Shown one piece after another: positions 1 to 18,176 of a stretch of DNA of 64,000 bases (position 1 is its first letter; each line of letters begins with the position of its first letter). Position numbers and translations under genes: made by a program. Origin of the DNA: Candidatus Omnitrophota bacterium (lineage in GTDB: Bacteria > Omnitrophota > Gorgyraeia > Zapsychrales > Fredricksoniimonadaceae); contig JAGWKL010000001.1 of the NCBI GenBank assembly GCA_028865345.1, forward strand, positions 235,098 through 299,097, written 5' to 3'. The notes under the pieces were generated by a model. The model was not told where the DNA came from. It did not search any database and saw nothing but the letters and a program-made list of their open reading frames with translations.

Positions 1-273
1 AGGATCATGAAACTCCCTTTCAAGGTCTCGACCACGACAAGCAATTTTATGATCGGCGTCACCGCTGCCGCCAGCGCCGGAATTTATTTAAACCGCGGTT
101 ATATCGACCCGCTTTTGGCCATGCCGGTGATGCTGGGCGTTCTGTTAGGGGCCAGCATAGGCACCCATTGGCTCATGAAATCGAGAACCAAATCACTGCG
201 GATCCTGTTTGGCATCGTTATTCTAATTTTGGCGGTGGAAATGATCTTTAATGGAATCGAGGGCAGGTTTTAA
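1..273 (+). CDS. C-terminal fragment of a TauE/SafE (DUF81)-like multipass membrane protein (N-terminus lies upstream of window)
   Basis: Open frame runs to position 1 with no upstream stop; hydrophobic helices with Gly-rich segments; immediately followed by a DUF1634 gene, which is the usual partner of DUF81 permeases. Confidence 0.4.
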   Translation, partial: RIMKLPFKVSTTTSNFMIGVTAAASAGIYLNRGYIDPLLAMPVMLGVLLGASIGTHWLMKSRTKSLRILFGIVILILAVEMIFNGIEGRF

Positions 274-624
274 ATGGAAAACCGGATAGGCGCCATTCTG
301 AGGGCCGGGGTCATCGTCTCCGCCCTGCTCGTTATTTGCGGAGGGATCATGTATTTAAGCCGCTATGGCACCGTCGGGCCTGCCTTTGCCCATTTTAAAG
401 GCGAACCGGAGCGCTTAAAAGACATCTACGGGATTATTCGATCCGCGCTGTCCTTGCACCCCCGGGGAATTATCCAATTGGGCCTGCTGTGCCTGATCGC
501 CACCCCTATCATGAGGGTGATCTTCTCCCTCGGCATGTACGCAAAACATAAAGACTCTTTGTACGTCGTCATTACCTCGATCGTCCTGTGCCTGCTTCTT
601 TACAGCCTGATATTTGTGAGGTAG
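274..624 (+). CDS. DUF1634 family small membrane protein
   Basis: 116 aa with two predicted TM helices; start codon is directly after the previous gene's stop; typical DUF81/DUF1634 pairing. Confidence 0.5.
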   Translation: MENRIGAILRAGVIVSALLVICGGIMYLSRYGTVGPAFAHFKGEPERLKDIYGIIRSALSLHPRGIIQLGLLCLIATPIMRVIFSLGMYAKHKDSLYVVITSIVLCLLLYSLIFVR

Positions 625-641
625 CACGTCCTGCAGGCCTT

Positions 642-1445
642 TTAATTGAGATTGCCTGTAGAGGAGTTTGATTCCAATCCCTGAAATATCCCATTCGCCG
701 CCTTCAAAAGGTCAACCGGAGTGTCGTAGGCGAGCCTGTGCCGTATTCCCATGGCCGCGGCAATGGACTCCATGGCGCTTTTATCATTGGCATTGCTGTA
801 AGGGATGTACAACAAAACACTCGTCCTTCTCGTTCTGGCGATCTGTTGCAATCGTGCGATCACCTTCTCGCCCGGCATATCGAACAGCCCTAATTTGACG
901 ACGGCAAGGTCCGGAGGATCATTCATCATCATTTCAATGGCCGCCATGCCGCTGTCGGCAACCTCGGTTTTGTATCCGCCGTCGGCAAATACACCTTTGA
1001 TCTTTCTGGCGGATTCAAAGATGTCTTCAACGATCGTGACCTTCCTGCCCCCGCCGTCCGTTTTTTCCCAATGATGTTTATTCAGGATGATATCCACCTC
1101 TTTAAACAACTGCGAGGCGGCAAAAGGCTTGATCAGGATCCCGTCCACCTGAAAGTCCCTGAATAAAGTTTCCAGATCGGCGCGGGCGGTCAGCACAAGG
1201 ACGGGATACTTGGGCCGTCCGTCAGCGCCGCAAATCCTCTGATAAAATTCCAGACCGCCCATCCCGGGCATGTTGACATCGAGCAGTATCAAATGGGGCG
1301 TAAAGTTTCTAAGTTTTTCCAGGCCTTCCAAGCCGTTAAAACCGAATTCGGCGTTGTACCCCTTATCATTCAGGCATTTTGCGTAAATTCGCGCGATGTC
1401 CTTTTCATCTTCGAGTATGAGTATGTTTTTCTTGTCCATAAACAT
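642..1445 (-). CDS. Response regulator with two tandem receiver (REC) domains and no output domain
   Basis: N-terminal 'ILILEDEKD...LLDVNMPGMGG...LVLTA...IKPF' is a canonical CheY-like REC domain; a second degenerate REC-like half follows. Confidence 0.75.
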   Translation of the reverse strand: MFMDKKNILILEDEKDIARIYAKCLNDKGYNAEFGFNGLEGLEKLRNFTPHLILLDVNMPGMGGLEFYQRICGADGRPKYPVLVLTARADLETLFRDFQVDGILIKPFAASQLFKEVDIILNKHHWEKTDGGGRKVTIVEDIFESARKIKGVFADGGYKTEVADSGMAAIEMMMNDPPDLAVVKLGLFDMPGEKVIARLQQIARTRRTSVLLYIPYSNANDKSAMESIAAAMGIRHRLAYDTPVDLLKAANGIFQGLESNSSTGNLN

Positions 1446-1482
1446 CCTCTTGAAGGCCGCCTTTCAAAGTATAGCATATCCT

Positions 1483-2094
1483 TCACGGGGAGGCGGCGAC
1501 CATCCTCAATGCCTTCAAAGCGGCCCGATAATCCGGCTGGGTGCCTTCTTCTTTCACATATTGGACATAGCGGACAATCCCGTCTTTATCGACAATGAAA
1601 ATGGCCCTTGACAGCAACCGCTGGCCCTTGATGAGCACGCCATACTTGATGCCGAAGTCGGCTGTGCGGTGGTCTGAGAACGTCTTGACATTTTTAATAT
1701 CAGCAGCCGAACAGAAACGCTTTTGGGCAAAGGGTAAATCCATGCTTATAAAGAGAATAACGACATCCTTGGAAATGGAAACAGCCTCTTGATTGAAATG
1801 GCGGATTTCGAGATCACATACGGGCGTATCCAGTGAAGGGACGGAGGCAATCAGCTTGATCTTTCCCTGGAAATCGCTTAACCTGGCATCCGACATGTCC
1901 GTCGCCTGAACGACGAAATCAGGGGCTTTCTGGCCAACCTTCACTTCATGGCCCAAAAGCACGACGGGCTTGCCTTTCATCGTCGCGACTCCCGTGCGTT
2001 CCACCACCGGGGCACAGTTTTCTTGGGCATCACAGAAAGGCAACGCCCAAAGGGCCAAAACAAAAATTGTGACGACAACCGCCTTTGCCTTCAT
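1483..2094 (-). CDS. tpx: Thiol peroxidase (atypical 2-Cys peroxiredoxin) with N-terminal signal peptide
   Basis: 'SVPSLDTPVC' peroxidatic Cys motif and Tpx-like fold across the protein; hydrophobic N-terminal leader 'AVVVTIFVLALWALP'. Confidence 0.85.
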   Translation of the reverse strand: MKAKAVVVTIFVLALWALPFCDAQENCAPVVERTGVATMKGKPVVLLGHEVKVGQKAPDFVVQATDMSDARLSDFQGKIKLIASVPSLDTPVCDLEIRHFNQEAVSISKDVVILFISMDLPFAQKRFCSAADIKNVKTFSDHRTADFGIKYGVLIKGQRLLSRAIFIVDKDGIVRYVQYVKEEGTQPDYRAALKALRMVAASP

Positions 2095-2104
2095 TAAGTT
2101 GATT

Positions 2105-3037
2105 TTAGCACAAATTCTTGACCACCATCAAAGAAACAACGGAAATGAGCGCCCAAAGGATTATCCCTTGTACGACCGGTTTCACGCCCACAGTCTTTAG
2201 TTTATCTCTCGACAGCCCTGCGCCGATCAGAAACAAGGTGACTGTTAATCCGACCTTTGACCCGTCCACAAGCCCCGCATAGACCGACTTTAAGCCTGGA
2301 AAGAATGTCACAACCAGGGAAGCCCCGACAAAACCTAAAATAAAATATGGAAATGCGATCTTTGCCGAAGTTTTTCTCTTAGGTCTGTTCTTTAAAACAA
2401 ATATAGTGCCTAAAGAAAGGGGGACGATCCATAAAGCCCTGGTCAATTTAACGATGGTCGCGATCTTGAGGGCTTCGTCCCCGTAACGGGCCGATGCCCC
2501 GACGACAGAACTGGTATCATGTATCGCTATGGCCGACCACATGCCGAACTGTTTCATTGTGAGGCCTAAATGATGGCCTAAAGGAGGGAAAAGAAAAAGT
2601 GCGATGGAATTGAGGATGAATATGGTACCCAACGCCACCGCCACCTCATCTTCATGGGCGTTGATGATCGGCGCGGTCGCGGCAATGGCGCTCCCCCCGC
2701 AAATGGCCGTCCCGGCTGATATCAAATAAGATATCTTTTTGTTGATGCCCAGACTCTTGCCGATCAACCATCCGATGAGCAGGGTTGCGGCTATTGAAAC
2801 AACGGTAAAAACAACCCCTTTTTCCCCGGCTTTAATGACCTGGGCAAAATTCAATCCGAACCCAAGCCCCACCACCGATATCTCAAGAAGATATTTGATC
2901 GCACGATGGGCAAACACTTTAAAAGGGTGCTGGATCGTAAAAGCAATAAGCAATCCCACGGCCAATGCCGATGGCGGTGAGGCAAAAGGCGTGAAACAAA
3001 AAACCAGCCCTATTAAGAAAATAATCTGTGCTACCAT
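2105..3037 (-). CDS. YeiH/UPF0324 family putative sulfate-exporter-type membrane protein
   Basis: 310 aa, about 9-10 TM helices, glycine-rich helices typical of UPF0324. Confidence 0.55.
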   Translation of the reverse strand: MVAQIIFLIGLVFCFTPFASPPSALAVGLLIAFTIQHPFKVFAHRAIKYLLEISVVGLGFGLNFAQVIKAGEKGVVFTVVSIAATLLIGWLIGKSLGINKKISYLISAGTAICGGSAIAATAPIINAHEDEVAVALGTIFILNSIALFLFPPLGHHLGLTMKQFGMWSAIAIHDTSSVVGASARYGDEALKIATIVKLTRALWIVPLSLGTIFVLKNRPKRKTSAKIAFPYFILGFVGASLVVTFFPGLKSVYAGLVDGSKVGLTVTLFLIGAGLSRDKLKTVGVKPVVQGIILWALISVVSLMVVKNLC

Positions 3038-3062
3038 CTTACACCCCCAAAACTCCCGGATA

Positions 3063-3215
3063 TTATGACGTCGTAAGCATGAAGCCCATCAAGGCCCCGA
3101 TCAGGGCGCTCGTCCACGGATTACCGGTCAACGGGCATGCCCCCGTCGAACAACGGCCGAAAAAACCTATGGTAAAACCAATGGCGGCGCCTGCCGCCGT
3201 CCCTATGATGATTCT
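3063..3215 (-). CDS. Small single-pass membrane protein with C-x4-C-P motif (likely start MRIIIGTAAG...)
   Basis: 'GFFGRCSTGACPLTGNPW' conserved-looking Cys motif flanked by Gly-rich TM segments; sits directly downstream of a DUF2892 gene. Confidence 0.4.
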   Translation of the reverse strand, partial: RIIIGTAAGAAIGFTIGFFGRCSTGACPLTGNPWTSALIGALMGFMLTTS

Positions 3216-3244
3216 CATACTGATATCCCTTGGTTTATTTAAAT

Positions 3245-3448
3245 TTACTTTATTCCCAAGCGCCCCAAGATCCACACCATCGGGCACCAGTTCGTAAATG
3301 CGGATTGCAGGAGGTTGAGACCCACAAAGGCGGTGAACCATAACCATAAATGGCCGAAATAGTGCGCCAGGACCAGGCTAAGAAGTACAAAAAATCCGGC
3401 GATCCCGCGCAGTGCTCTTTCCAGCATATTGATTCTCCTTTCCTTCAA
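3245..3448 (-). CDS. DUF2892 (YgaP-like) small membrane protein
   Basis: 67 aa, 'RALRGIAGFFVLLSL...' and C-terminal 'NWCPM' motif characteristic of DUF2892. Confidence 0.5.
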   Translation of the reverse strand: MKERRINMLERALRGIAGFFVLLSLVLAHYFGHLWLWFTAFVGLNLLQSAFTNWCPMVWILGRLGIK

Positions 3449-3490
3449 TTTGGTAAACCCGATACCCTGGCGAAGGGAGTTGCGTTAACC

Positions 3491-6400
3491 TTATCCACCG
3501 TGCGCTGGTTTGGGTTTCATGACCATATAATAAATAACCGGTATGGCCGTACGTGACAAGAAGGTCGATGCGATCTCCCCTGCCATAAGTGACAATGCCA
3601 GGCCCTGGAAGATCGGGTCAAAAAGGATGACTGATGCCCCGACAAAGACCGCCATGGCCGTCAGCAGCATGGGCCTGAAACGCACCGCACCGGCGTCTAT
3701 CACCGCTTCTTCCAGGGACATCCCTTCCCTGAGACGCAACTGGATAAAATCCACCAGGATAATGGAATTCTGCACCACGATCCCTGCGCCCGCAATCATG
3801 CCTATCATGGAGGTGGCGGTAAAAAAGATCCCTGTCATCCAATGGGCCGGCAGGATCCCCACGAGCGTCAAGGGGATCGGCATCATGATGATCATCGGCA
3901 CTTTAAAGGACTTAAACCATCCCACAACCAGAACATAGATCAAGACCAGTACAATTGCAAAAGCAATGCCTAAGTCCCTGAAAACCTCATAGGTGATCTG
4001 CCACTCTCCGTCGAATTTCAAGGCCCAGTGATTTTGATTGGGCGGCATGCCGGTCCAATAGATCTTCAATGATTTCTGGCCTTCCGGATGCGACGGGAGA
4101 GGAAGTTTCTCGAAAGCCTTTTGCAAATCAAAAAGCACGTAGACAGGGCTTTCAAACGGCCCTGCCACATCGCCGAAAACATAACCGACCCTCATGAGGT
4201 TCTTATGAAAGATCGGTTTGGACTTAAGCCTGTCTTGTACCCTGACTAAGTCCTTAAGCGGTATAGGAATTCCGGTATTCGACAATAATGTCATCCCCAA
4301 AATACTGTTCAGGTCCCTGCGTTTATTTTCCGGCAGGCGCACGACGATTTCCACAGGTTCATATTCATTGGAAAGGTGCGCCAGGCCGACATCCCTGCCT
4401 GCCAAGGCCGTTGAAATGGTCGCAGCAATCGCATTGGGCGCAATACCGTTGAGACTGGCCTTTTGACGGTCAACGACCAACCGGAACAGTTTTTCATTGC
4501 CTGAGGGAGAAGGAGTAGTGATGTCCGTGACGCTGGGGTTTGATGACATCACCCCCTCAACCTGTTGGGCCAGCTTGTCGATCCCGGCCCTATTGGGACC
4601 GTAGATCTCCATGACGAGCGTGGATAATACCGGCGGGCCAGGCGGAACTTCAGCCACTTGGGACTGCCCGCCGTAGCGTGCAACAATTTCGTGGATCTTG
4701 GGGCGGACGGACTTGGCAATATCGTGGCTTTGCCGCCGCCGCTCGGCTTTAGGTAAAAGATTGACCTGCAGGTCCGCCTGGTTGGTGCCGTGGCGAAGAT
4801 AATAATGCCTGACGAGCCCGTTGAAATTATACGGCGCGCTCGTTCCCACATAAGCTTCGATGTTGTCCACCTCCGGGACTGTCTGTAAATACTTAGCGAT
4901 CTCTCCGATGACATCGTTTGTGGTTGCCAACGATGTCCCCTGCGGCATGTCCAGAACCACCTGAAACTCATTTTTATTGTCAAAGGGCAGCATTTTCACC
5001 TTCACCCATTTAAGAGGTATCAATGAAACAGAAAGCAACAAAAGAACGCTGATCACAATAAGAAAAACGGCGCGGACCCGGGAATTGTAAATTAACGGCT
5101 TCATGTAGGAACGGTAGACCCGGGTCAGGAAATCCTCCCGGCTGTCATGGCCTTTCATGTCCCCTTTTTCGAAGGCGCGCTTGAGGATAATGGTCGCGGC
5201 CCATGGTGTCGCCATAAAAGCCATCAGCGTGGAAAAGAAAATGGCGAGGCTTGATCCGATGGGGATAGGACGCATGTACGGGCCCATCAGCCCCCCGACA
5301 AAGGCCATGGGCAAAATGGCCGAGATGACCGTCAGGGCAGCCAGGATGAGCGGGCTTTGGACCTCATTGACAGCGCCGATGACAATATCCAAAAATTGAC
5401 GCCCCGCATTTTTCGCCAGACGCAGGTGCCTGACGATGTTTTCCACATTGACTATGGGGCCGTCGACAAGGATACCGATGGAAAAAATCAGTGCGAAAAG
5501 TGTTATTCTGTTGAGGGTAAAGCCGATCCAGTAAAAAGCAGCCAGGGTAAGGGACAACGTCAGAGGAATGGTCACCGCCACAATGCCCGCTTCCTTCCAT
5601 CCCAGGACCATGGCAATGATAAGGGCCACCCCTCCCACCGCCAGCCCCATATGGAAAAGAAGTTCGTTGGATTTGTCCGTCGCTGTTTTTCCATAGTTGC
5701 GCGTGACCTTCATGTGCACGTCCGATGGTATCAGGGCCCCTTTTAAAGTGTCCACTTTCTTGAGGACACGATCGCACAACCACGCGGCATTGGCGCCCTT
5801 CCTCTTGGATATGCTCAATGTCACTGCCTCAAAGGGCCCCTTAGACGGATATTCCCTTTGATCGCCGAAACGGATATTCACATCATGTTCCTGAGTATCG
5901 GGCCCGTCGACAATCCGGGCGACGTCTTTTAAATAAACGATACGCCCAACCGATGTGCCGACAACAAGATTTTCCAGGTCTGCTTTGGACGTGATAAATG
6001 AGTCAGCCTCGACGCCTATGACGTCAGGCGTTGTTTGCAGGTGTCCGGCCGGCATTTTGACGTTGGAAGACTCGATGAGCCGTTCAATGCTCAACGGGTC
6101 GATCAGATGCTCTGAAAGCTTGGCCCCATCAAGCAGGACCTGAAAGGTGCGCTTATGGCCGCCTATGATCCGGGTATCTGAAATATCCGGTATGGCGTTG
6201 ACCTCCTGCTGTATCGAGGCAACCACGCGGCGCAAAGTCTCCGTATTTTCCTTACCGGAATAAAAGGTCAGGGCCAGGATCGGCACATCATCGATGGAAT
6301 GGTATTTGATCAGGGGTTGTGATGCGCCGGGCGGCAAAAAGTCCTGGTTCGCAAAGACCTTCGTGTATAATTTCGTCAATGACTGCTCGACATCCTCCCC

Positions 6401-6715
6401 CACCTTGAAACGCACGACGATCAGCGCCCCATCGGAGCGGGCGGTCGAATAAATGTATTTGACACCGGGGATCTCCCACAGCTTGCGCTCCCCCACGTCG
6501 ACAATCCTCTGTTCCACCTCCTTGGGAGTGTCTGCCTGAAACCGCACAAAAATATCGAACATGGGAACGGATATCTGCGGCTCTTCTTCGCGCGGAAGAT
6601 TAAGCAAGGCCGTGACGCCTAAAAAAATCGCAAAGCCCAAAATCAAAGGCGTCACCTTGGACTTCACGAAGAAGGCGACTGTTTTACCGATCCAATTGAT
6701 GGAATTATTGTCCAT
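3491..6715 (-). CDS. RND superfamily efflux transporter permease (AcrB/CzcA-like, 12 TM with two large periplasmic loops)
   Basis: 1074 aa; '...GILVDGPIVNVENI...' TM4 motif region, duplicated 6-TM plus porter-domain architecture. Confidence 0.9.
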   Translation of the reverse strand: MDNNSINWIGKTVAFFVKSKVTPLILGFAIFLGVTALLNLPREEEPQISVPMFDIFVRFQADTPKEVEQRIVDVGERKLWEIPGVKYIYSTARSDGALIVVRFKVGEDVEQSLTKLYTKVFANQDFLPPGASQPLIKYHSIDDVPILALTFYSGKENTETLRRVVASIQQEVNAIPDISDTRIIGGHKRTFQVLLDGAKLSEHLIDPLSIERLIESSNVKMPAGHLQTTPDVIGVEADSFITSKADLENLVVGTSVGRIVYLKDVARIVDGPDTQEHDVNIRFGDQREYPSKGPFEAVTLSISKRKGANAAWLCDRVLKKVDTLKGALIPSDVHMKVTRNYGKTATDKSNELLFHMGLAVGGVALIIAMVLGWKEAGIVAVTIPLTLSLTLAAFYWIGFTLNRITLFALIFSIGILVDGPIVNVENIVRHLRLAKNAGRQFLDIVIGAVNEVQSPLILAALTVISAILPMAFVGGLMGPYMRPIPIGSSLAIFFSTLMAFMATPWAATIILKRAFEKGDMKGHDSREDFLTRVYRSYMKPLIYNSRVRAVFLIVISVLLLLSVSLIPLKWVKVKMLPFDNKNEFQVVLDMPQGTSLATTNDVIGEIAKYLQTVPEVDNIEAYVGTSAPYNFNGLVRHYYLRHGTNQADLQVNLLPKAERRRQSHDIAKSVRPKIHEIVARYGGQSQVAEVPPGPPVLSTLVMEIYGPNRAGIDKLAQQVEGVMSSNPSVTDITTPSPSGNEKLFRLVVDRQKASLNGIAPNAIAATISTALAGRDVGLAHLSNEYEPVEIVVRLPENKRRDLNSILGMTLLSNTGIPIPLKDLVRVQDRLKSKPIFHKNLMRVGYVFGDVAGPFESPVYVLFDLQKAFEKLPLPSHPEGQKSLKIYWTGMPPNQNHWALKFDGEWQITYEVFRDLGIAFAIVLVLIYVLVVGWFKSFKVPMIIMMPIPLTLVGILPAHWMTGIFFTATSMIGMIAGAGIVVQNSIILVDFIQLRLREGMSLEEAVIDAGAVRFRPMLLTAMAVFVGASVILFDPIFQGLALSLMAGEIASTFLSRTAIPVIYYMVMKPKPAHGG

Positions 6716-8072
6716 AAATGGCCTCTGCCGCCTCGGGCGTCAGTTGGCCCGCATAAAGTTTTAAGGTCAGCGCATTTTCACGACGGGCGGCTTCCAGACC
6801 CAACCAACGCTCTCGGGCGGCGACAACTTCCGAGCGGATCGAAAGCATCTGCCCGATCGAAGACCGGCCTTCCCTATATAAGGGCTCCAAAAGCTTTAAC
6901 GCTTGGCCCGCATCGGCACAGGCATTCCCGGCCAATCGAATGTTCGACCCCAAGGCCCGCAGGCGCCAATAAACGTCCGCCGCGTCACGGGCCGCCTGGT
7001 CCTTTTTTTCCTGATATGCGGCGGAAAGCTCCCTGACCTTCTCCTGGGCCATTTTGACCCGAGGGGCATGGCCTGGATCAAAGAGATCCATCCTGACTTT
7101 AAGGCCGAACATATAATTGCCGCCGCCGCTTGATCCGATACGATGGACGTCTTCGTCAGCGCCGCCAAAAGCAACCACTTTAGGAAGAACGCTTTTACTT
7201 TCCGCGGTCACTTCAACGCCGCCGGCTTCCAGGAGCCTGGCCATGGCTTTAATATCCGGCCTGTTGTTGATTGCTTGATCCATCCATTCTCCGACGCTTC
7301 CCGTGACCTCGATGGGTTTCGCAAAATCCATTTTCACAGCCACGGGCACGGCCGGATCCACGCCCCGCAACACATTAAAAACCAGGTTCAAGGCCGCGCG
7401 TTGAGCCGCGGTCTCGTTTTTCATCTGCAAAAGTTGTGTCTGGGTCAGGCGGGCTAAGTAAAAATCAGCTCCCAGCGCTTGTCCTGTGCGTCCCAAAGCC
7501 TCGGCGGCTGCCACATCCGCCCGCCCCCCGGAAGTTTGTTTCTCCAGAACATCAAGCAACGCGTCAGCTGCGGCCAGACGGCTGTAGACCTCCGAAGCCG
7601 CCATGATGGCTTCCATCCGGGTGAACCGGGCTTGGTATTGGGCTGATTCGGTCAGAATTCCTGCGGCTTTAATACGCGCTGCAGTTTGTGAAAAATCGAA
7701 CAACGTCCATTCGACGCCGGCCTGAGCGGAATCATTCGCCCACGCCGCAGGGCTGTTCAGGCGCTTTAATGCAAAATCTTCAGCGGTGAATTTATTCTCG
7801 CGCAGCAGGGCTCCAAAAACATACACGGGATCATTGCCATATTGAGATTCCACAGATGCCCAGAATTTAGGCATCCGGCTTGAGGCGGCCAGGGCCTTTT
7901 GGGCTATGGTCTTTTCGATAGACGCATGTTCTTTTTTTAACAAAGGATAATAGTTCAAAACCTGGGATAAATATTCTTTATAGGACACGAACCGGGGGCC
8001 GGGGGCCGGTTGGGATCGTCCTGGGCCTGAACAAATAACGAGACTGATGAGAATCAGCAATAAAACTCTCAC
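6705..8072 (-). CDS. TolC-family outer membrane efflux protein (OMF) with signal peptide
   Basis: 455 aa, cleavable leader, Ala/Leu/Gln/Arg-rich alpha-helical repeats; 11-nt overlap with the RND gene. Confidence 0.8.
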   Translation of the reverse strand: MRVLLLILISLVICSGPGRSQPAPGPRFVSYKEYLSQVLNYYPLLKKEHASIEKTIAQKALAASSRMPKFWASVESQYGNDPVYVFGALLRENKFTAEDFALKRLNSPAAWANDSAQAGVEWTLFDFSQTAARIKAAGILTESAQYQARFTRMEAIMAASEVYSRLAAADALLDVLEKQTSGGRADVAAAEALGRTGQALGADFYLARLTQTQLLQMKNETAAQRAALNLVFNVLRGVDPAVPVAVKMDFAKPIEVTGSVGEWMDQAINNRPDIKAMARLLEAGGVEVTAESKSVLPKVVAFGGADEDVHRIGSSGGGNYMFGLKVRMDLFDPGHAPRVKMAQEKVRELSAAYQEKKDQAARDAADVYWRLRALGSNIRLAGNACADAGQALKLLEPLYREGRSSIGQMLSIRSEVVAARERWLGLEAARRENALTLKLYAGQLTPEAAEAIYGQ

Positions 8073-8365
8073 AAAATTTCTCCCAATATTTTTATGATAC
8101 TCACAATGCGTTCGTCAGTCAGGTGATAACAGGCCTTGACTCCCTTCTTTTCAAAAGTCACAACCCCGGCCTGCCTCAAGGCGGCCAGGTGCTGAGAAAT
8201 AGTAGATTGCGGAAGCCCCAGCTTTTCGACCATCTTAGACACATGGCAACCGTATTGGGTGATCAACCCCTGAGCCATTTTAAGGCGCACCGGGTGCCCC
8301 AGTGCTTTGAGAAATGCGGCGGATTTCTCGTAATCCATATCAGACCCCTTTCCCATATCTATCAT
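8069..8365 (-). CDS. arsR: ArsR/SmtB family metalloregulatory transcriptional repressor
   Basis: 'LKALGHPVRLKMAQGL...LPQSTISQHLAALRQAGVV' winged-HTH signature; 4-nt overlap with OMF gene. Confidence 0.8.
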   Translation of the reverse strand: MIDMGKGSDMDYEKSAAFLKALGHPVRLKMAQGLITQYGCHVSKMVEKLGLPQSTISQHLAALRQAGVVTFEKKGVKACYHLTDERIVSIIKILGEIL

Positions 8366-8573
8366 TAAATCTATATATTCAAATAATACGATATATTATT
8401 GCGATTGTCAAGAAGAAATATAATGAAACCTGTTACAGGCTTTCTCTGGAAATGGTCAGAATGCCGAGGACTTCAGCTTCGGAAACCTGCTCGAAATGCA
8501 CATAAAATTACCCAACACTCCCTCAATAGCCAAGCACTCTAAGGTAAAGAATTCCAGACGCCCGCTCTTCGCT

Positions 8574-9197
8574 TTACTCCTGAGGATTCAAATATTTAAA
8601 GGTAACTGCCGCCAGGGCGCCGCCCGCAAAGTTCCCGATCCAGAATATTAAAAGCATGGCCAGCTTATTTAAGCCCATAAGGGTCATGCCCAATGCCACC
8701 GCCGGGTTAAACGCCCCTCCGGAAATATTCCCGGCCGCATAGGCTGAAGCCATGACTGTAAAGCCGATGGCAAGCCCGTAAAACGAATTGCCCGCGGTGC
8801 CTTTGGAGGTCGCCACATTAAGCACGACAAAGGCCAGGGCAAAGGTAAAGATCAATTCCACCAAAAGCGCGTGGATCATGTTGGGCTGGGCCTCGATGAC
8901 CAGGCTCCCATGCTTCAAATAGCCGACCAGTAAAGCCGCAACCACGGCGGCGATAAACTGCGCCGTCCAATATCCCGGAACGTCCGTGGTATCGCATTTG
9001 CCTCTCATCCATACGGCGAGCGTCACCGCCGGATTATAATGCCCGCCGGAGATATGCCCGCCGGCATAAACCATCACCATCAGGATGGTGCCGATCGCCA
9101 GGGGCGCCATGGCGCCGGCGCCGATACCGACAACGCTTAAGCCAACCACAAAAACCAGGAAAAACGTCCCTATGAATTCCATGACGTATTTGTTCAT
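8574..9197 (-). CDS. MIP-family channel (aquaporin/aquaglyceroporin)
   Basis: Two NPA boxes ('GGHYNPAVT' and 'GGAFNPAVA'), six TM helices, 207 aa. Confidence 0.85.
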   Translation of the reverse strand: MNKYVMEFIGTFFLVFVVGLSVVGIGAGAMAPLAIGTILMVMVYAGGHISGGHYNPAVTLAVWMRGKCDTTDVPGYWTAQFIAAVVAALLVGYLKHGSLVIEAQPNMIHALLVELIFTFALAFVVLNVATSKGTAGNSFYGLAIGFTVMASAYAAGNISGGAFNPAVALGMTLMGLNKLAMLLIFWIGNFAGGALAAVTFKYLNPQE

Positions 9198-9228
9198 CCT
9201 TTTACCCTTTCCTTAATTTTGAGGATTT

Positions 9229-9723
9229 TTACCAATGAAGCCTGCTGAACCTTTCCGCATACCGCTTGATCCATTCGCGGGAGGCCTCTTCAAGAGACAC
9301 ATCCACTCCCTGTTGCAGGCTCAATAAATCACGGTATTCGGCAATCAGGTAAATCTGCTCGATCATTTTCACCTTGAAGGCGTCCTTGGACCTTGGAAAA
9401 CGTACGGCCACATCGTAAAGTTTTGTCCGGGTATTTCTGGCACTACGCACGACCTTGGCTTTGATGCTGAATAACTTGCCCTCAAAAGGCATTCTGATCA
9501 AAATCCCGGCGCCGGTTTTGACAGGATTTTGAGACGGGAACAACAAGCCCCCCATACTGACATTGATGGTTTCGCAACGCACCTCTTCCTTACTCTCTGC
9601 CGGGCCGGGATTAATGACTTTAAAACTGAGAGGCAGGCGTAAGGAATGGCGGATAAAATGGCGGAATTCCACCATGGGCGTACTGTTGGCACGGCCTTGG
9701 GCGCTGGATTCTTCATTTTCCAT
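9229..9723 (-). CDS. PilZ domain protein (c-di-GMP receptor family)
   Basis: 'RHFIRHSLRLP' (RxxxR) and 'NVSMGGLLF' (DxSxGG-like) PilZ motifs; likely start at MENEESS. Confidence 0.55.
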   Translation of the reverse strand: MENEESSAQGRANSTPMVEFRHFIRHSLRLPLSFKVINPGPAESKEEVRCETINVSMGGLLFPSQNPVKTGAGILIRMPFEGKLFSIKAKVVRSARNTRTKLYDVAVRFPRSKDAFKVKMIEQIYLIAEYRDLLSLQQGVDVSLEEASREWIKRYAERFSRLHW

Positions 9724-9830
9724 GATGGTTATCTTAGTAATATAAGATACTTGTTGCAAGAAAAATAATCCCCCGCAATTTTTCAAATTGCGGGGGATTA
9801 TAAAGGGTCTCCGGCAAGAAGACAGCCGGC

Positions 9831-10775
9831 CTATTGATGGGATTGCGGCACGATGGGCACAGCCATCTTCTCAAAGCCGCGGATGATGGTCAGTAAAAAT
9901 CGGCGGCCGATTGCCTGAACACCCAGGATCCTGTGCAGGTCATCCATGCCCGTCACTAACTGCCCGTCCATGGCCACAATGATATCGCCGGGCAAAAGAC
10001 CTGCCCTGTCTGCAGGGCTGTCAGGTTCAAGCCCCATGACGCTCACCCCTGACTCCACCGGCGCTTTGTCGACATGAATGATCCCTTTGGGTAAGGGCAC
10101 ATTTTGGCCCATGATCCCGATGTAGCCGCACTCGATCCGCCCATGGTGCAAAAGCTGACCGACGATAAACTTCGCAGTATTGGAAGGAATGGCAAAACAA
10201 ATCCCCTGCGCGGGCAAAATGATGGCCGTATTGACCCCCACAACCTCACCGCGGCTGTTAAATAACGGCCCGCCGGAATTGCCCGGATTAAGAGAGGCGT
10301 CTGTCTGAATGATCTGCTCGATCAGGCGTCCCGACTGGGAACGCATGGAACGGCCCAAAGCGCTGATGACACCGGCGGTCAAGGTGCATTGGAACCCATA
10401 GGGATTACCGATGGCAACGGCGATCTGACCCACCCGCAGGCGGCTGGAATCACCCAGCGGCACGTAATTTAAGCCCTGAAGCCCGACGCGAACCACCGCC
10501 AAATCCGTATGCGGATCATCGCCGATCAACCGGGCTTCCAGCCTCCGGCCATCGGCGAAGGTCACTTCCATGGCGTGAGCCCCGTGGACCACATGGCTGT
10601 TGGTGACAATAAACCCGTCAGGTGTCAGGACAAAACCAGAGCCGCCGCCCGCCCTCGGTTTCTTGACTTCAATATTAACAACAGCCGAGGATGTCTTTTG
10701 AAAAACCCCGCTGACGGTTTGAGAATAACTGTCCAACAATTCTTCATCCGAATGGCGCGTAAGCATGACTTTCAC
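9831..10775 (-). CDS. HtrA/DegP-like trypsin-type serine protease with one PDZ domain (no obvious signal peptide)
   Basis: 'TNSHVV' His, 'GNSGGPLF' Ser catalytic motifs; C-terminal PDZ. Confidence 0.8.
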   Translation of the reverse strand: MKVMLTRHSDEELLDSYSQTVSGVFQKTSSAVVNIEVKKPRAGGGSGFVLTPDGFIVTNSHVVHGAHAMEVTFADGRRLEARLIGDDPHTDLAVVRVGLQGLNYVPLGDSSRLRVGQIAVAIGNPYGFQCTLTAGVISALGRSMRSQSGRLIEQIIQTDASLNPGNSGGPLFNSRGEVVGVNTAIILPAQGICFAIPSNTAKFIVGQLLHHGRIECGYIGIMGQNVPLPKGIIHVDKAPVESGVSVMGLEPDSPADRAGLLPGDIIVAMDGQLVTGMDDLHRILGVQAIGRRFLLTIIRGFEKMAVPIVPQSHQ

Positions 10776-10781
10776 CTTCCC

Positions 10782-11156
10782 CTATACTTTAAGCAGCTTC
10801 CTGGGAGGCAGACCGGCACCTTCAATATGCTTATGCCCCCAGTAAATCATTTCCATCAACAATGGTCTGAGATCTTTCCCGCGCCTGGTCAGCCTGTAGG
10901 CATACCGTACCGGCGCTTTCTGATAGGGACGCTTTTCAATGATCCCATATTCCTCAAGGTTTCTGAGCCTGTCTGTCAGGATATTCGTAGCGATCCCCTC
11001 GAAAGACTCCAGAAATTCATTGAACGTTTTTTTCTTCAAGAACATCATGTCCCGGATGACCAAAAGCGTCCATTTGTCACCGATCAAATCCAGAGTATTG
11101 GTCACGGGACATTGGGAACGCTCCAGGCATCCGGTCAACTTTTTGGCCGCGGTCAT
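10782..11156 (-). CDS. HxlR-family winged-helix transcriptional regulator
   Basis: 'CPVTNTLDLIGDKWTLLVIRDM' HxlR signature. Confidence 0.75.
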   Translation of the reverse strand: MTAAKKLTGCLERSQCPVTNTLDLIGDKWTLLVIRDMMFLKKKTFNEFLESFEGIATNILTDRLRNLEEYGIIEKRPYQKAPVRYAYRLTRRGKDLRPLLMEMIYWGHKHIEGAGLPPRKLLKV

Positions 11157-11812
11157 TTGGATGCCATGGCACTCATCGCTTCCTGGCAGTATTGCGTATA
11201 GTCTTTATAACACGTTTGATAAAACGGCTTGGACTTGAGATTCAAGCGCCACTTTTTGAGGGACGGATATTTCTCCAGGCTGATGCGGGCGATTTCACAT
11301 GAATCCAAAACAGCCAATAAATTGATATCGGCAAGGCTGAATTCACTTCCCGCAAGACAGGCATTCCCTGACAACTGCCTCTCCAAGACAGGAAAATACT
11401 TGTCCAGAAACTCCAGGCCTACACGCAGAGACTCCTCGTCGACCTTTTGGCCGGACATGGGGGCAAAGACCCGGTTAAAAATGACCCGTCCCATGGCGTG
11501 GGCCACATGGATGGACGCATAATCCGTCCATGCGTCGATGACCGCCCGCTTTTGGGCGTCCATAGGATAAAGAGAAGAATTATATCGCACAGCAAGATAA
11601 CGGTTTATGGCGTTGCTTTCAAACAATTTAAAACCGTCTATGTCCACGGCCGGGATCTTGCCCGTCGGTGAAATACTCAAGTATTCGGGCGTCTGGTTCT
11701 CCCGCGCCATGGGGCTTATGGGCACCCACTCATACTTGAGGTTCAAAAAGTTTAAGGCATAACGCACCTTGGCCACAGCAGAAGAAACCCCGATTCCATA
11801 AAGCTTGATCAT
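11153..11812 (-). CDS. Glutathione S-transferase family protein
   Basis: Thioredoxin-like N-domain 'KLYGIGVSSAVAKVRYAL...IPAVDIDGFKLFESNAINRYL' followed by helical C-domain. Confidence 0.75.
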   Translation of the reverse strand: MIKLYGIGVSSAVAKVRYALNFLNLKYEWVPISPMARENQTPEYLSISPTGKIPAVDIDGFKLFESNAINRYLAVRYNSSLYPMDAQKRAVIDAWTDYASIHVAHAMGRVIFNRVFAPMSGQKVDEESLRVGLEFLDKYFPVLERQLSGNACLAGSEFSLADINLLAVLDSCEIARISLEKYPSLKKWRLNLKSKPFYQTCYKDYTQYCQEAMSAMASK

Positions 11813-12211
11813 AACATGTCCTTTCTTGGGTTAGCTTGTATTTCGCAAGTTACATGCGCAACTCTAACACAGTTACTTTCAAATTGCAAGTTATTTCTGT
11901 GGGCCCCGGCCGACACCCGGTCGGCCGTCCTTTTAAGCCTTTACAGCGGCGAATTCGAGATATCGTGCGTGGCTCCCGACACGCCGCTAGCCTTTGGATT
12001 CCATCGGACCTTTTTTGATCCGCCTGGAAATATGCACCTGCACCCGCCGCTTGGGCGAAATCTTCCGGTGAGGCTGGCGCATAATGGACGCCTGGTATCC
12101 GGGCTCATCGTGGTAATGGGTCTTTTCTGTTCTTAAAATCTTTCCCCTTGTCATCATTCTATGGTTAGTTTAGCATTCACCGGATTAAAACAAGATTAAA
12201 ATAAGATGAAG

Positions 12212-13390
12212 TCAAGGTTCGGACATCAGCATGAAAGATAAGAATACAATACCCGCCGCGACGATCGTTGAGCCGGCATACCATGCCTTCAAGGATATAT
12301 GTGTCATTTCAACGGCTTTCCCCATCCCGTACGCAGCAACGCCGTAGCCCAGCATATAGGAGGCCATAAGCCACCCTGATATTTTTTCAGCCAGGGGTGC
12401 ATGAATTTTCTGCCCGAAATTAAACGTCAGCGGAAAGAATGCCGAACATGACAGACCGGCTGCGGCAAATAAAAGGATGCCTGTCAACGGTGAGGAAGCC
12501 GTACTGACCCCTGCCAGCGACAAAGTGATCAACACCGGCAAAACCATGTAGACCCAACGCGCCGCCACCCACACGGAGATGATAGACACCAAAAGCCTTC
12601 CGATGCTCACCATGATCCAGAAAGCGGCCAGGGCATATCCGGCCTCCTGAAGCCCCACACCCTTTTCCTTGTTCAGAAAAATGATGGCCCAATTGGCAAA
12701 TAAAGTCTCGCAATATCCATATAAAAAAACAGCAAGGATAAATAACCGTACCCTGGCACGCCACGGGGCTTTGGAACCGGCAGATGTAAGAGTCCCCGTT
12801 GGAACCGGCCGCTTAATCCTAAAAGGTAAAACAAGCGCACTTGCCCCTAAAATGACCAACGCTCCTGCCACGGCAACAGGAAGCACCCACCAGCCGATTT
12901 TCCTGACCAGGACAGCCACCAAAAACGGCGCCAGGGCCGTGCCCAGTCCCAAAAGCGTGTGCAATACCGTCAGGGCCGAAGCTGTATTGCCCGGAAAAAA
13001 ATCCGCAGCATAAACATTGATGGTTGGCAATGTTGCGCCGAAACCCGCGCCGACAAAGCCCGTTCCTAAAATAACCAGAAAATAAGCGGCCTGATGCTCG
13101 TGCCGGACACATTGGCTGGAGGCGATCAGCGCCATGGCCAGTAAGTTGAAAAGCAGCCCAATCCGAAAAACCGCTCTTATCCCCCACCTTTGCGCAGAAG
13201 CCGGGCCTGACAATGCTGCAACAATGGCCACCAGCACCTGGGGAATAAATAGCGAACCGTATTCACTATTGGAAAAACCGAATCCGGAAGCGCTTGTAAA
13301 AACAAGGCTGGCTGCCGGGACTGTCACCAGCACAAGCCCTTGAAAAAGGCCTGTCAGGTAGACACATAAAATTTCCAGCTTCCGGACCAT
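12212..13390 (-). CDS. MFS transporter (12 TM; start likely MVRKLEIL...)
   Basis: Two 6-TM halves, Gly-rich helices; upstream extension of the ORF would overlap pncB. Confidence 0.7.
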   Translation of the reverse strand: MVRKLEILCVYLTGLFQGLVLVTVPAASLVFTSASGFGFSNSEYGSLFIPQVLVAIVAALSGPASAQRWGIRAVFRIGLLFNLLAMALIASSQCVRHEHQAAYFLVILGTGFVGAGFGATLPTINVYAADFFPGNTASALTVLHTLLGLGTALAPFLVAVLVRKIGWWVLPVAVAGALVILGASALVLPFRIKRPVPTGTLTSAGSKAPWRARVRLFILAVFLYGYCETLFANWAIIFLNKEKGVGLQEAGYALAAFWIMVSIGRLLVSIISVWVAARWVYMVLPVLITLSLAGVSTASSPLTGILLFAAAGLSCSAFFPLTFNFGQKIHAPLAEKISGWLMASYMLGYGVAAYGMGKAVEMTHISLKAWYAGSTIVAAGIVFLSFMLMSEP

Positions 13391-13488
13391 GGGAGGGGTA
13401 TCATAACACAAATCCTTATACACCGCACCGTATCCATAGAAAATGAATTTTAGTTTGCCCCTCGTGTTTGCGGCAGGAAAGAAACTTT

Positions 13489-14841
13489 TCAACGGCCCGT
13501 TCTTTGGAAACGGTCTGCGAGTTGTGATAATTTATGGCTGTATTCGATAAGGACCCGCGGCCTTCTTTGTAGAGAAGATACCCACGGCGCCAGCCGTTGC
13601 CGCAGGTATTGCCTGGACTCTTCCATGGACGGCAAACGTGAGACCAGGCGGCCGTCCTTGACGATCAATCGAAGAAGCGAGCGGCCTCCTGCCGGAGGTT
13701 TTTCGCGGCTTAAGGCGATCACATCTTTTTTGATCCCTCCTTTTTGATCCGTAATCCTGAAAACCTGTTTGTGGCCGGGGACCGTCTGCTTGCGGGGGCT
13801 GTTCTTGGCTTTGAATTTGATGCCCTGGCCGTCTTTTGTCTGGACCAATTTATAGGTCAGGTTCAAGACCGGACAATCCGGAGAAACCATCAGCTCCGTC
13901 CCCACGCCGAAAATATCAATGGGGGACTTTTGCCGGATGAGTTTGAGGATCTTATGTTCGTCGAGATTGCCGCTGGCCATAATCTTCACGCTTTTCAAGC
14001 CTGCATGGTCCAATATTCTTCTTACTTTCTTACTTAATAAAGACAAATTTCCGCTGTCAAGACGCACGCCCTTGATCCGTTCCCTGATGTCGAGTGTCGT
14101 GATCATCTTGACGGACTTGAGAGTGTCATAGGTATCAATCAGTACGACGGTATCGTCGGGAAAGACGTCATGGAATTTCCGGAATGATTCCTCTTCCCGG
14201 TCAAATGCTTCGACCCATGCATGGGCCATGGTCCCGTAAAGGGGTATGCCGAATTCCTGCCCCGCCCGCACATTGGAGGTGCCTTCGGCACCGCCGATAT
14301 AGGCGGCACGGGCGGACAATAAGGCGGCTTCCAATCCATGCGCCCTGCGGGCCCCGAAATCAATGACGTGCCTTTGCCTGCCGTCGCAACGCGCGGCCAG
14401 ACTCAAGCGCGCGGCCTTGGTGGCCACCATGGATTCAATGTTGAAAATGGATAAAAGACATGTCTCCAGGACCTGGGCTTCAATGATCGGCGCTTCAATA
14501 TGGATGACCGGTTCTCGGGCGAAGAATATCTCCCCTTCGGGCATGGCCCAGATGTTCCCCGTGAATTTAAAACCCTTCAGGTAATCGAAAAAATCCTTGG
14601 CCACAGATTTAAAAACGGACAGTGATCTTAAATAGGCAACGTCTTGAGAGGAAAATCTTAAATTCAGAACATAATCAACGGCTTGTTGAAGGCCGCAGGC
14701 GACCAAAAAAGGCCTGGCCGGCGGCATGGAATGGCAAATGAGTTCAAAACCGGCCGTCATACGGGCATCGTTCTGAAAGTACCCGGCAGCCATGGTCAAT
14801 TCATAAAGATCAATGTGCAGACCAAGGTCCTTCTTAAACAT
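13489..14841 (-). CDS. pncB: Nicotinate phosphoribosyltransferase
   Basis: 'HIDLYELTMAAGYF' N-terminus and NAPRTase length/fold (450 aa). Confidence 0.85.
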   Translation of the reverse strand: MFKKDLGLHIDLYELTMAAGYFQNDARMTAGFELICHSMPPARPFLVACGLQQAVDYVLNLRFSSQDVAYLRSLSVFKSVAKDFFDYLKGFKFTGNIWAMPEGEIFFAREPVIHIEAPIIEAQVLETCLLSIFNIESMVATKAARLSLAARCDGRQRHVIDFGARRAHGLEAALLSARAAYIGGAEGTSNVRAGQEFGIPLYGTMAHAWVEAFDREEESFRKFHDVFPDDTVVLIDTYDTLKSVKMITTLDIRERIKGVRLDSGNLSLLSKKVRRILDHAGLKSVKIMASGNLDEHKILKLIRQKSPIDIFGVGTELMVSPDCPVLNLTYKLVQTKDGQGIKFKAKNSPRKQTVPGHKQVFRITDQKGGIKKDVIALSREKPPAGGRSLLRLIVKDGRLVSRLPSMEESRQYLRQRLAPWVSSLQRRPRVLIEYSHKLSQLADRFQRTGR

Positions 14842-15430
14842 TTTGATGGCCCCTTTGTTTGATCTCCATGAAAGTCGTTTTCTTGGCCCCCGCCATGGTC
14901 ATGGCATCCATGGCCCCTTGGCAGGCCGCCTCACCGATACCTCTAACGGCATCGTCAAGGACATAAACAACAAAACCATTTTTTAAAGCATCCAGGACCG
15001 TCGACCGGACACAGTATTCCGTCGCTAATCCTCCGATAAAAAGCGTTTTGACCTGAAGCTTTTTCAATATATCTGGAAAACTTTCATGCCAGGCATCTTG
15101 CGCTTCAAAGACAGAGTAACCATCCTTAAGTTCATCCATGCCCTTGGAGAGGATGATGGCAGACTCGGGTAATTCCAGTTGGGGATGAAAATCAGCTCCG
15201 GGCGTATGTTGAATGCAGTGTTCGGGCCATGGGCCCCCGTTGGTTTTGAAATGACGGCTTTCCCTGGGGTGCCAGTCCCTGGAGGCCATGACCGGCAGGC
15301 CTTTCTGCCGAAAATAAGCCGCATACCGGTTTAAGGGCATAACCACCCTGCCCCCATCGGGCACGGCCAGGGCCCCGCCGGGACAAAAGTCATTTTGCAC
15401 ATCAACGATCAATAAAGCTCCTGTACTCAT
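14834..15430 (-). CDS. pncA: Nicotinamidase/pyrazinamidase (isochorismatase family)
   Basis: 'LLIVDVQNDFCPGGALAV' motif; catalytic Cys region 'TEYCV'; overlaps pncB by 8 nt. Confidence 0.85.
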   Translation of the reverse strand: MSTGALLIVDVQNDFCPGGALAVPDGGRVVMPLNRYAAYFRQKGLPVMASRDWHPRESRHFKTNGGPWPEHCIQHTPGADFHPQLELPESAIILSKGMDELKDGYSVFEAQDAWHESFPDILKKLQVKTLFIGGLATEYCVRSTVLDALKNGFVVYVLDDAVRGIGEAACQGAMDAMTMAGAKKTTFMEIKQRGHQNV

Positions 15431-15671
15431 AGGTCCTCCGCCATGGCTCTATTATAACACTAAACCTTTTCTAATTCTTCGACTCCATCAAGGGCGAGTG
15501 TCAATTCTGTCTCTGCCTGGGGGAAAAAGGGCTGCTTCTCGGTGAAGGCCAGGCGGCGATCTTCCTTATTTGTATGCACCGGCCCGTGAAGCAAATAACT
15601 CTCACGGTTTAACGTAACAAAATACAGATTACAAAAAAATAAGAGGGAAATTGATGTTAAACTGACTTTAT

Positions 15672-15866
15672 ATGAGCTTGGAAGAATTTGTCCATTTTCT
15701 CTGCCCTTACTGCAGCCAAACAAACCAACTTCCGGTGGACATCACCGCGGGAAACTCTCAGGAGATTGTCGTCGACTGCGAAGTCTGCTGTGCACCGGTC
15801 GTCCTGAATATCAGGTTGCGTGGCAATGAAATACTAACGGTTGAAGCAAGAAAAGAGAACGAATGA
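15672..15866 (+). CDS. CPXCG-motif cysteine-rich small protein (zinc-ribbon-like)
   Basis: 'CPYCSQ...DCEVCCAP' four-Cys arrangement in 64 aa. Confidence 0.55.
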   Translation: MSLEEFVHFLCPYCSQTNQLPVDITAGNSQEIVVDCEVCCAPVVLNIRLRGNEILTVEARKENE

Positions 15867-15906
15867 TGCCGATGGATTAAAAACGGCGGTTATGGTAGAT
15901 TAAAGT

Positions 15907-18031: not shown

Positions 18032-18176
18032 AGGCCCCCGTATTATGAACTATGGTTCATTATAGGTCAAACAAATTGTTCATGTCAAAATATTTATTTG
18101 CCCATGGAGTTCGGTGGATGAATTACCCTGCAGCAGCCTGACAGGGTGATTCATTTCAAATATTCTCCTCTCAGAT

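Follow-up and report, generated by a model that had tools for sequence, protein, structure and literature searches.

We analysed a 64-kb stretch of DNA from a Candidatus Omnitrophota bacterium (contig JAGWKL010000001.1, positions 235,098 to 299,097; hereafter the window, numbered from its first letter). On its minus strand lies an operon for a pump of the resistance-nodulation-division (RND) type that has no gene for a periplasmic adaptor. The first genes of the operon encode an ArsR/SmtB-family repressor of 98 aa (8069-8365; NF033788, 76.8 bits against a cutoff of 55); a TolC-like outer membrane factor (OMF) of 455 aa, which starts at a GTG and has a signal peptide (6705-8072; two repeats of PF02321, E = 4.6e-36); the RND permease, of 1074 aa (3491-6715; PF00873, 479 bits); and a YgaP-like DUF2892 protein with two transmembrane (TM) helices (3245-3448; PF11127, 54.4 bits against a cutoff of 25.3). 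In most relatives of this pump, an adaptor of the membrane-fusion protein (MFP) type is encoded between the OMF and the permease. We found that its absence is a conserved trait of the clade to which the window belongs, and we consider whether the permease might dock directly on the channel.

The operon continues with a DUF6132 micro-membrane protein of 51 aa with a C-x4-C-P motif (C-S-T-G-A-C-P; 3063-3218, Pfam), a YeiH-like putative anion (sulfate) exporter (2105-3037; PF03601), and the thiol peroxidase Tpx (1483-2094; NF001808, 191 bits against a cutoff of 123). The final gene of the co-directional run encodes two REC stretches and no output domain (642-1445; Pfam and NCBIfam), and it is not conserved at related loci. 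Open reading frame (ORF) calls and matches to Pfam and NCBIfam found all of these genes on the minus strand, where a sequence-only reading of the window had put them. (The true coding sequence for the DUF6132 protein is 3063-3218; a 94-aa ORF that reaches 3347 runs into DUF2892. If Tpx is read from its long start, it has a hydrophobic, signal-peptide-like N-terminus.)

The same reading described the genes as tightly spaced and listed an aquaporin first. The spacing is tight from arsR to the tandem-REC gene: the overlap is 4 nt between arsR and the OMF gene and 11 nt between the OMF and RND genes, and the remaining gaps are 10-42 nt. A gene for a MIP-family channel is present next door on the minus strand (8574-9197; PF00230, 115 bits), but it lies 208 nt upstream of arsR. 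The gap contains a sigma-70-like promoter, TTGACA-17-TATTAT, on the minus strand (8383-8411, running from 8411 to 8383), which has 11/12 matches to the consensus and is the best such site in 9.4 kb. Because this promoter-like site lies between the two genes, the operon most likely begins at arsR, and the MIP gene is probably a separate transcription unit outside the conserved unit. Also, among the family loci described below, MIP matches occur only in the window and in a duplicate locus (L001). So the aquaporin stands outside the unit, but the gene content is otherwise as claimed: the efflux operon is headed by ArsR, encodes an OMF and an RND permease, and lacks an MFP.

In the public annotation, the OMF gene begins at an internal ATG, and the resulting protein of 417 aa has no signal peptide. 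If the gene is read from the GTG at 8072, which overlaps the stop codon of arsR, the protein has 455 aa, in agreement with the homologues. A search of window positions 1-20000 against Rfam found no RNA family.

Absence of the adaptor across a clade of RND pumps

To look for an adaptor, we used an MFP profile that is general enough to recognise both AcrA (137 bits) and CusB (89 bits) of E. coli. It found no MFP in any ORF of at least 40 aa across the 64-kb window (E ≤ 10). The exact RND protein of the window is also on record from another Candidatus Omnitrophica metagenome-assembled genome (MAG), GCA_028870875.1, and the Pfam table for 10 kb on either side of that RND gene contains no HlyD/MFP family.

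The RND family (signature peptides KMLPFDNK and PYNFNGLV) is large, occurs in many phyla, and is uncharacterised. More than 600 stretches matched in each of the genome and metagenome collections, and we sampled the best 80 genome loci and the best 80 metagenome loci. Synteny was compared over 167 loci, in which ORFs were called and then annotated with iterated profiles. Homologues with 61-84% identity to the window's RND permease are numerous, and nearly all of them are labelled Omnitrophota, with some Kiritimatiellia. At 44-54% identity, the relatives span Acidobacteriota, Verrucomicrobiota, Desulfobacterota, Nitrospirota, NC10, and others, and they have a gene of 340-420 aa between the OMF and RND genes. 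This middle gene encodes an adaptor in all eight of the cases tested (HlyD_D23, HlyD_3, and Biotin_lipoyl_2 in Pfam). More broadly, a full MFP is encoded directly upstream of the permease, usually with overlapping codons, in 89 of the 95 loci with enough sequence that lie outside the window's clade. (Among the six MFP-negative relatives, L080, at least, is an artefact of ORF calling, and L064 has a split MFP gene.) Thus, the usual order in this family is OMF-MFP-RND(-DUF2892).

The window's own clade, which we will term clade A, is monophyletic, with 35 taxa and 100/100 bootstraps in a neighbour-joining tree of 161 RND proteins. Its record titles name Omnitrophota, Kiritimatiellia, 'Planctomycetales', and Elusimicrobia, and RND identities within it range from 51% to 100%. 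None of the 28 non-redundant clade A loci has the MFP, and in 26 of them the OMF gene abuts the RND gene. These junctions are mostly −3 to +13 nt, and the stop and start codons usually overlap. The difference between 0/28 in clade A and 89/95 in the other relatives cannot be attributed to chance (P = 3e-22, Fisher's exact test), and the absence of the MFP is a conserved trait of the whole clade. The sequence-only reading was therefore right that the adaptor is missing from a place where one is normally encoded. It had also allowed that the linkage of the OMF to the permease might be coincidental, if the RND clade were one that works without TolC. We reject this possibility because the OMF has been kept beside the permease, with coupled codons, in 26/28 loci.

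A second clade shows a partial version of the same change. Clade B has 13 taxa (100/100 bootstraps), includes a Chlorobaculum MAG, and has RND proteins that are 46-48% identical to the window's. At 7 of its 11 loci (L130, L132, L133, L137, L142, L146, and L167), the gene that separates the OMF and RND genes encodes a lipoprotein of about 140 aa. The lipoprotein matches only positions 2-30 and 290-367 of the MFP profile, which are the N-terminal strand and the C-terminal part of the adaptor that make up its membrane-proximal (MP) domain. It has no beta-barrel, lipoyl, or hairpin domain. The other four loci have remnants or nothing (L138 keeps only the C-terminal tail, and L084 also has a remnant). 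The OMF of clade B also lacks a tip arginine that is otherwise 98% conserved. As clade A and the independent clade B are both reduced, the part of the adaptor that reaches the OMF has been shed at least twice in this RND family, with the OMF gene kept.

We also searched the window and the clade A loci for a hidden mini-adaptor, with a profile of the MP-only lipoprotein from clade B and with the MFP profile (E ≤ 10). There was none, apart from the MFP at L105 that is discussed below and one hit at noise level. Three loci have gaps of 214-222 nt between the OMF and RND genes (L111, L116, and L117), and these gaps contain no ORF. In L116 and L117, the gap of about 220 nt is filled by a long GC-rich palindrome.

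The main rival to a pump that does without its adaptor is that the pump is still tripartite and obtains an adaptor in trans, from another locus, for example one that is shared with a paralogous RND system. E. coli AcrD provides a precedent: this close paralogue of AcrB has neither an adaptor gene of its own nor an OMF gene beside it, and it borrows AcrA. Also, clade A organisms do own adaptors, as the contig of L105 contains a separate and unrelated OMF-MFP cluster, 3-5 kb from the cassette. Over 440 kb of clade A loci, though, the profile found no other MFP, in a family whose other members regularly encode a cognate MFP between the two genes. Furthermore, there is no MFP-bearing paralogue from Omnitrophota or Elusimicrobia among the best 160 family loci, and clade B illustrates that an adaptor can lose its hairpin, lipoyl, and barrel domains and still keep the MP domain. 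Changes in the OMF and the permease, to which we now turn, also bear on this rival.

Remodelling of the channel and the permease

The window's protein is a member of the OMF family: it has two OEP stretches, a signal peptide, TolC-like gate residues, and the tip glycine, which is conserved in 27/27 sequences. It scores below the cutoffs of TIGR01844 (59 vs. 225 bits) and TIGR01845 (37 vs. 210 bits). When pairs of loci are matched for RND identity (65-75%), OMF identity is 37.7% in clade A and 38.7% in the MFP-bearing clades. By this comparison, constraint on the OMF is equal in clade A and in the MFP-bearing clades, and the clade A OMF is not decaying.

The differences that do distinguish the clade A OMFs are concentrated where an adaptor would be expected to bind. 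Eight sites differ in residue class between clade A and the MFP-bearing clades, and five or six of them are at the two periplasmic helix-turn-helix tips (equivalent to positions 143, 151, 154/155, 361, 366, and 368 of mature TolC). In the window's OMF, the remodelled tips are at about residues 192-205 and 397-409. At the second tip, the motif R-Y-x-x-G-L-x-x-x-T-(D/E)-L has become L-Y-x-(E/Q)-G-(R/K)-(K/Q)-S in 27/27 clade A sequences. In canonical pumps, it is at the OMF tips that the adaptor hairpins dock (PMC4446572).

For the permease, the sequence-only reading had suggested a classification as HAE, HME, or an MFP-independent type. PF00873 matches the protein over its full length (residues 13-1065, 479 bits against a cutoff of 28). 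By score, it is neither HAE-1 (NF033617, 402 vs. 1250 bits; NF000282, 331 vs. 1250 bits; TIGR00915, 272 vs. 940 bits) nor HME (TIGR00914, 236 vs. 701 bits). It is about equally distant from all of the solved pumps, with 19-20% identity (the best match is TriC, 191 bits), and the HAE-1 pumps are at least as close to it as ZneA and CusA. It belongs instead to the uncharacterised family described above and, within that family, to the adaptor-less clade A. We used an AlphaFold2 model (pLDDT 65, from a shallow alignment of 25 sequences) for fold assignment only. This model, which is of moderate confidence, has twelve TM helices and two large loops in the periplasm. Its whole length can be aligned to OqxB, AcrB, AcrD, CusA, CmeB, and AdeB, with TM-scores of 0.65-0.73. 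So, the predicted fold is that of the adaptor-dependent tripartite pumps and not that of HpnN, MmpL, or SecDF.

HpnN, MmpL, and SecDF are RND proteins that function without OMFs, and their existence raises the possibility that the clade A permease is uncoupled from the OMF. The permease would then take its substrate no further than across or out of the inner membrane, and the role of the OMF would be a different one or that of an independent channel. We think that this has only a small chance of being correct because the OMF gene abuts the RND gene in nearly all clade A loci, with coupled codons, and the two proteins co-diverge at a normal rate. Also, the permease is predicted to have the tripartite type of fold, and both of its docking subdomains are intact, with no deletions in clade A.

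The window's TM4 motif is VDGPIVNVEN, as the sequence-only reading had quoted, and TM10 contains GIVVQNS. The family consensus for TM4 is VDDAIVVVEN or VDDPIVDVEN, with two aspartates as in AcrB; the window has a single aspartate, as in the VDA of CusA. Of the residues at the proton-relay sites (in AcrB, D407 and D408 of TM4, K940 of TM10, and R971 of TM11), D418 and R1014 are present, D419 has become glycine, and the equivalent of AcrB K940 is a glutamine, where the clade consensus is DD plus R. The two changes covary perfectly: all four full-length VDG sequences have the glutamine (P0001, P0002, P0003, and P0005, which are cluster representatives with 77-100% identity), and all 115 VDD sequences have the arginine. 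As D419 and R982 correspond to D408 and K940 of AcrB, the pattern of D419G and R982Q suggests that the window's immediate subgroup has lost an ion pair of the proton relay, with compensation.

The loss of one TM4 aspartate and of the TM10 arginine could also be taken as a sign that the cassette is the decaying remnant of a broken tripartite operon. We give this very little credence. The covariation in the four representatives suggests compensated remodelling rather than decay, all of the ORFs are intact, 26/28 loci keep both genes across several phyla (with RND identities of 51-100%), and constraint on the OMF is normal.

Other residues of the permease have changed across clade A. P74 and E597, which are both invariant in the MFP-bearing relatives (113/113), are changed only in clade A, and G238, Y278, A702, and T726, which are nearly invariant in those relatives, are changed as well. 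Clade B retains the ancestral residues at these six sites. In addition, the relative conservation of the PC2 subdomain is lower in clade A (0.88) than in six control clades (0.94-1.05). (We had considered that the docking domain might show extra conservation in clade A. This signal disappeared with a corrected mapping onto AcrB and with MFP-bearing controls of equal depth, which left the modest relaxation of PC2.) The patterns at the OMF tips, at the RND residues, and in PC2 all fit the loss of contacts with an adaptor, although they do not prove it because, with only about 20% identity to AcrB, single residues are mapped onto it with uncertainty. As a side observation, the clade A permeases gain D238 and E276 and the OMF tips gain R/K, a potential charge complementarity.

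The release of residues that are invariant in 113 relatives and the rewriting of the tips in 27/27 OMFs are not what we would expect if an adaptor of the cognate type still bound to both proteins. Together with the synteny, they lead us to consider an adaptor in trans unlikely, while still a serious alternative to direct docking.

DUF2892, the ArsR repressor, and the sulfur and metalloid context

DUF2892 is encoded directly downstream of the permease in 29 of the 35 clade A loci and is also found in 66 MFP-bearing loci. Its cysteine is present in 107 of 108 sequences, in the motif F-T-x-W-C-P (FTNWCP in the window). In some loci, DUF2892 is fused to the C-terminus of the permease, as in the 1149-aa protein P0057 (L002, 8001-11450) and also in L003, L004, and L091. 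In two other loci, a membrane-anchored rhodanese is encoded between the permease and DUF2892 (L012, 5547-5930, and L108, 10146-10550), which is in effect a split YgaP. DUF6132 adjoins DUF2892 in L088, L089, L105, and L106, and in several of the MFP-bearing relatives. In Azospira, the oxidation of H2S was accompanied by an induction of a DUF2892 gene of about 10-fold (PMC5358917). From the fusions and the conserved linkage, we propose that DUF2892 is a likely inner-membrane accessory subunit of the permease.

Could some other periplasmic protein, not homologous to MFPs, have replaced the adaptor as the bridge between the permease and the OMF? The authors of the BesA study raised the same caveat for the hairpin-less pump of Borrelia (PMC3807786), and there are unannotated genes near many clade A loci. 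Nevertheless, only ArsR, the OMF, the permease, and DUF2892 recur across the clade A neighbourhoods. DUF2892 itself, at 60 aa and with two TM helices, does not have the size to span the periplasm, and the MFP-bearing relatives have it equally. We see a slim chance for a replacement of this kind.

An ArsR accompanies about a quarter to a third of the family loci. The window's ArsR has two cysteines that, by alignment, are common to the clade A ArsRs: C40 (in ECNV/GCHV) and C79 (in KxCY). It does not contain the CVC motif that binds As(III) in ArsRs of the R773 type (Cys32, Cys34, and Cys37, in helix alpha-3); the site reads YGCHVSKM, with one cysteine. Among solved structures, its closest relatives are PagR, HlyU, BigR, YgaV, and NolR, and the metal sensors CadC, SmtB, and ArsR are less close. 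It scores below the cutoff for the BigR equivalog (51.9 vs. 155 bits) and lacks a C-terminal cysteine. A search for inverted repeats, with seeds of at least 6, found nothing. By eye, there is an inverted repeat, AATAATA-N5-TATTATT (7-5-7), that overlaps the −10 box and that might be the ArsR operator.

The sequence-only reading took ArsR and the MIP channel as hints of a metalloid theme. These two genes do not by themselves establish such a theme because the ArsR lacks the CVC motif and the MIP gene is not conserved. What lends it independent support is a cluster of genes for DUF134, the arsenite exporter ACR3, and a thioredoxin-type ArsC (16265-18031, minus strand; profile matches). ACR3 scores well above its cutoff (TIGR00832, 454 vs. 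283 bits), and ArsC scores below its own (132 vs. 174 bits). The cluster is 8 kb upstream of the cassette, with unrelated genes between, so the window does not contain an ars operon in the sense of an exporter and ArsC under the same ArsR. However, ACR3 and ArsC are encoded directly upstream of three other clade A cassettes, in the same direction (L002, L101, and L102), and ACR3 is found in the flanks of 4/35 clade A loci and 0/126 others (P = 0.002). In L002 and L004, ACR3 and ArsC are fused into a protein of 484 aa.

Genes for sulfur or thiol metabolism also recur near the cassettes. A YeiH gene is beside the cassette in L002, L010, and L093, and Tpx-like genes are nearby in L094 and L027. 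Putative redox genes (thioredoxin and C_GCAxxG_C_C) lie just upstream of the OMF gene in L105 (4650-5329) and L010 (5357-5647). L010 also has genes for Nitro_FeMo-Co, a small SAM methyltransferase, and DUF134. A DsbA-like gene is near the cassette in L101, and an MBL-fold gene and a TauE gene with DUF1634 are near the cassette in L002. In the window, a TauE/SafE gene (which is cut by the start of the window) and a DUF1634 gene, on the plus strand at 1-624, converge on the end of the operon; a TauE/DUF1634 pair also adjoins the cassette in L002-L004. The thiol or sulfur flavour that the sequence-only reading ascribed to the small membrane proteins behind the pump is thus borne out, by the invariant cysteine of DUF2892, by the rhodaneses, and by the recurrence of thioredoxin, DsbA-like, C_GCAxxG_C_C, and Tpx genes. 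To judge from these neighbours, the inducer and the substrate are most likely thiol-reactive. Reactive sulfur species are one candidate, and As(III) or a different soft metal or metalloid is the other; the data do not choose between them.

A proposed assembly and its relation to known systems

We propose that the window encodes a single operon, autoregulated by ArsR, for a permease of the AcrB/CusA type, a TolC-like channel, and a small cysteine-bearing subunit, DUF2892. The accessory genes after the pump (DUF6132, the YeiH-like exporter, and a secreted Tpx) may handle thiols or anions. The ancestral operon would have been OMF-MFP-RND(-DUF2892), and the adaptor gene would have been cleanly deleted in the window's lineage. 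The OMF and RND genes would then have become translationally coupled, and this state would have been held through deep divergence. If so, the pump works without a hairpin-bearing adaptor, most likely through direct contact between the docking domain of the permease and the OMF tips. DUF2892 might sit on the TM domain of the permease, in the manner of AcrZ or YajC, and a thiol-reactive signal might release the repressor, with a thiophilic substrate. If this two-component arrangement is correct, then the MP-only lipoproteins of clade B would mark an intermediate stage in the same course of evolution.

Several observations weigh against this proposal. First, the known architecture is different: in the solved assemblies of AcrAB-TolC and MexAB-OprM, the adaptor is the bridge, and the borrowing of AcrA by AcrD indicates that a permease without an adjacent MFP can still use one. 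Second, nothing in the clade A proteins obviously compensates for the adaptor. There is no RND indel of more than 3 residues, the OMF has no compensating indel (the difference is confined to the N-terminal signal region), and conservation of the docking domain is not clearly above that of the MFP-bearing clades. Third, the OMF retains the TolC-like gate residues D153, Y362, and K/R at 366/367 (TolC numbering), so its opening still needs some agent. The lack of compensating insertions and the retained gate count in favour of an adaptor in trans. Fourth, as the window's permease lacks one TM4 aspartate and the TM10 arginine, its energy coupling would be atypical. Finally, the substrate is assigned from gene neighbourhood. 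On balance, we put the chances at about even that clade A encodes a functional adaptor-less pump in which the RND crown docks directly on the remodelled OMF tips. The fuller proposal is more tentative, and we hold it at a little below even: that the clade A pumps are self-sufficient RND-OMF machines, whose docking domain both binds and opens the channel, and in which DUF2892 helps to handle a thiophilic (sulfur or arsenic) substrate.

Our searches of the literature found no account of adaptor-less RND-OMF operons, of MP-only adaptors, or of an association between RND permeases and DUF2892. For the regulator and DUF2892, the nearest comparison is YgaV-YgaP, a pairing of a sulfide-responsive ArsR with DUF2892 (PMC9774250). 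YgaV-YgaP and the persulfide-responsive BigR/SqrR regulons resemble our loci in combining an ArsR-family repressor with DUF2892, with rhodanese neighbours as in L012 and L108, and BigR operons also have TauE, YeiH, and MBL-fold genes as neighbours. They differ in that C40 and C79 of the window's ArsR do not match the cysteine pair of YgaV/SqrR (in alpha-2 and alpha-5), and that the window's operon has no SQR or persulfide dioxygenase.

As a potential subunit, DUF2892 can be compared to AcrZ and YajC, which are small alpha-helical proteins of the inner membrane that bind to the TM domain of AcrB (PMC4446572). The position would be similar. There is no sequence relationship, though, and DUF2892 has two TM helices and an invariant cysteine; unlike AcrZ, it is linked to its pump across phyla. 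More generally, our analysis defines a large and uncharacterised RND family with a conserved DUF2892 partner and with links to sulfur and arsenic stress genes, and it places both DUF2892 and DUF6132 in a concrete context in which their functions can be studied.

Among RND pumps, AcrD is alike in that its gene has no adjacent MFP, but the window's OMF is coupled in cis, and no MFP-bearing paralogue from the same phyla is among the best 160 loci. The canonical systems AcrAB-TolC, MexAB-OprM, and CusCBA share with the window the RND fold, a TolC-like OMF with two OEP repeats, and an operon headed by a repressor. The window's operon differs from them in lacking an adaptor gene, in its remodelled OMF tips, and in its additional conserved DUF2892. 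Periplasmic adaptors have been described as essential to tripartite pumps, and their recognition of the OMF is considered a drug target (PMC3807786; PMC4446572).

The only well-known exception, and the closest precedent for clade A, is BesABC of Borrelia burgdorferi. It also lacks the hairpin that recruits and opens the OMF, and it has no compensating domains in its RND or OMF proteins (PMC3807786). The hairpin-less BesA has been cited as the main challenge to models in which assembly is tip to tip, and its partner BesC is reported to lack the primary gates (PMC4446572), whereas the window's OMF keeps its TolC-like gate residues. BesA still has its lipoyl, beta-barrel, and MP domains; clade B retains the MP domain only; and clade A, including the window, retains nothing. 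These reductions put the stated essentiality of the adaptor in question. Comparative genomics thus suggests that some pumps of this family may assemble in a manner that has not been described before, and the natural series of a full adaptor, a hairpin-less adaptor, an MP-only adaptor, and none offers a test of how little adaptor is needed and of direct docking between the permease and the OMF.

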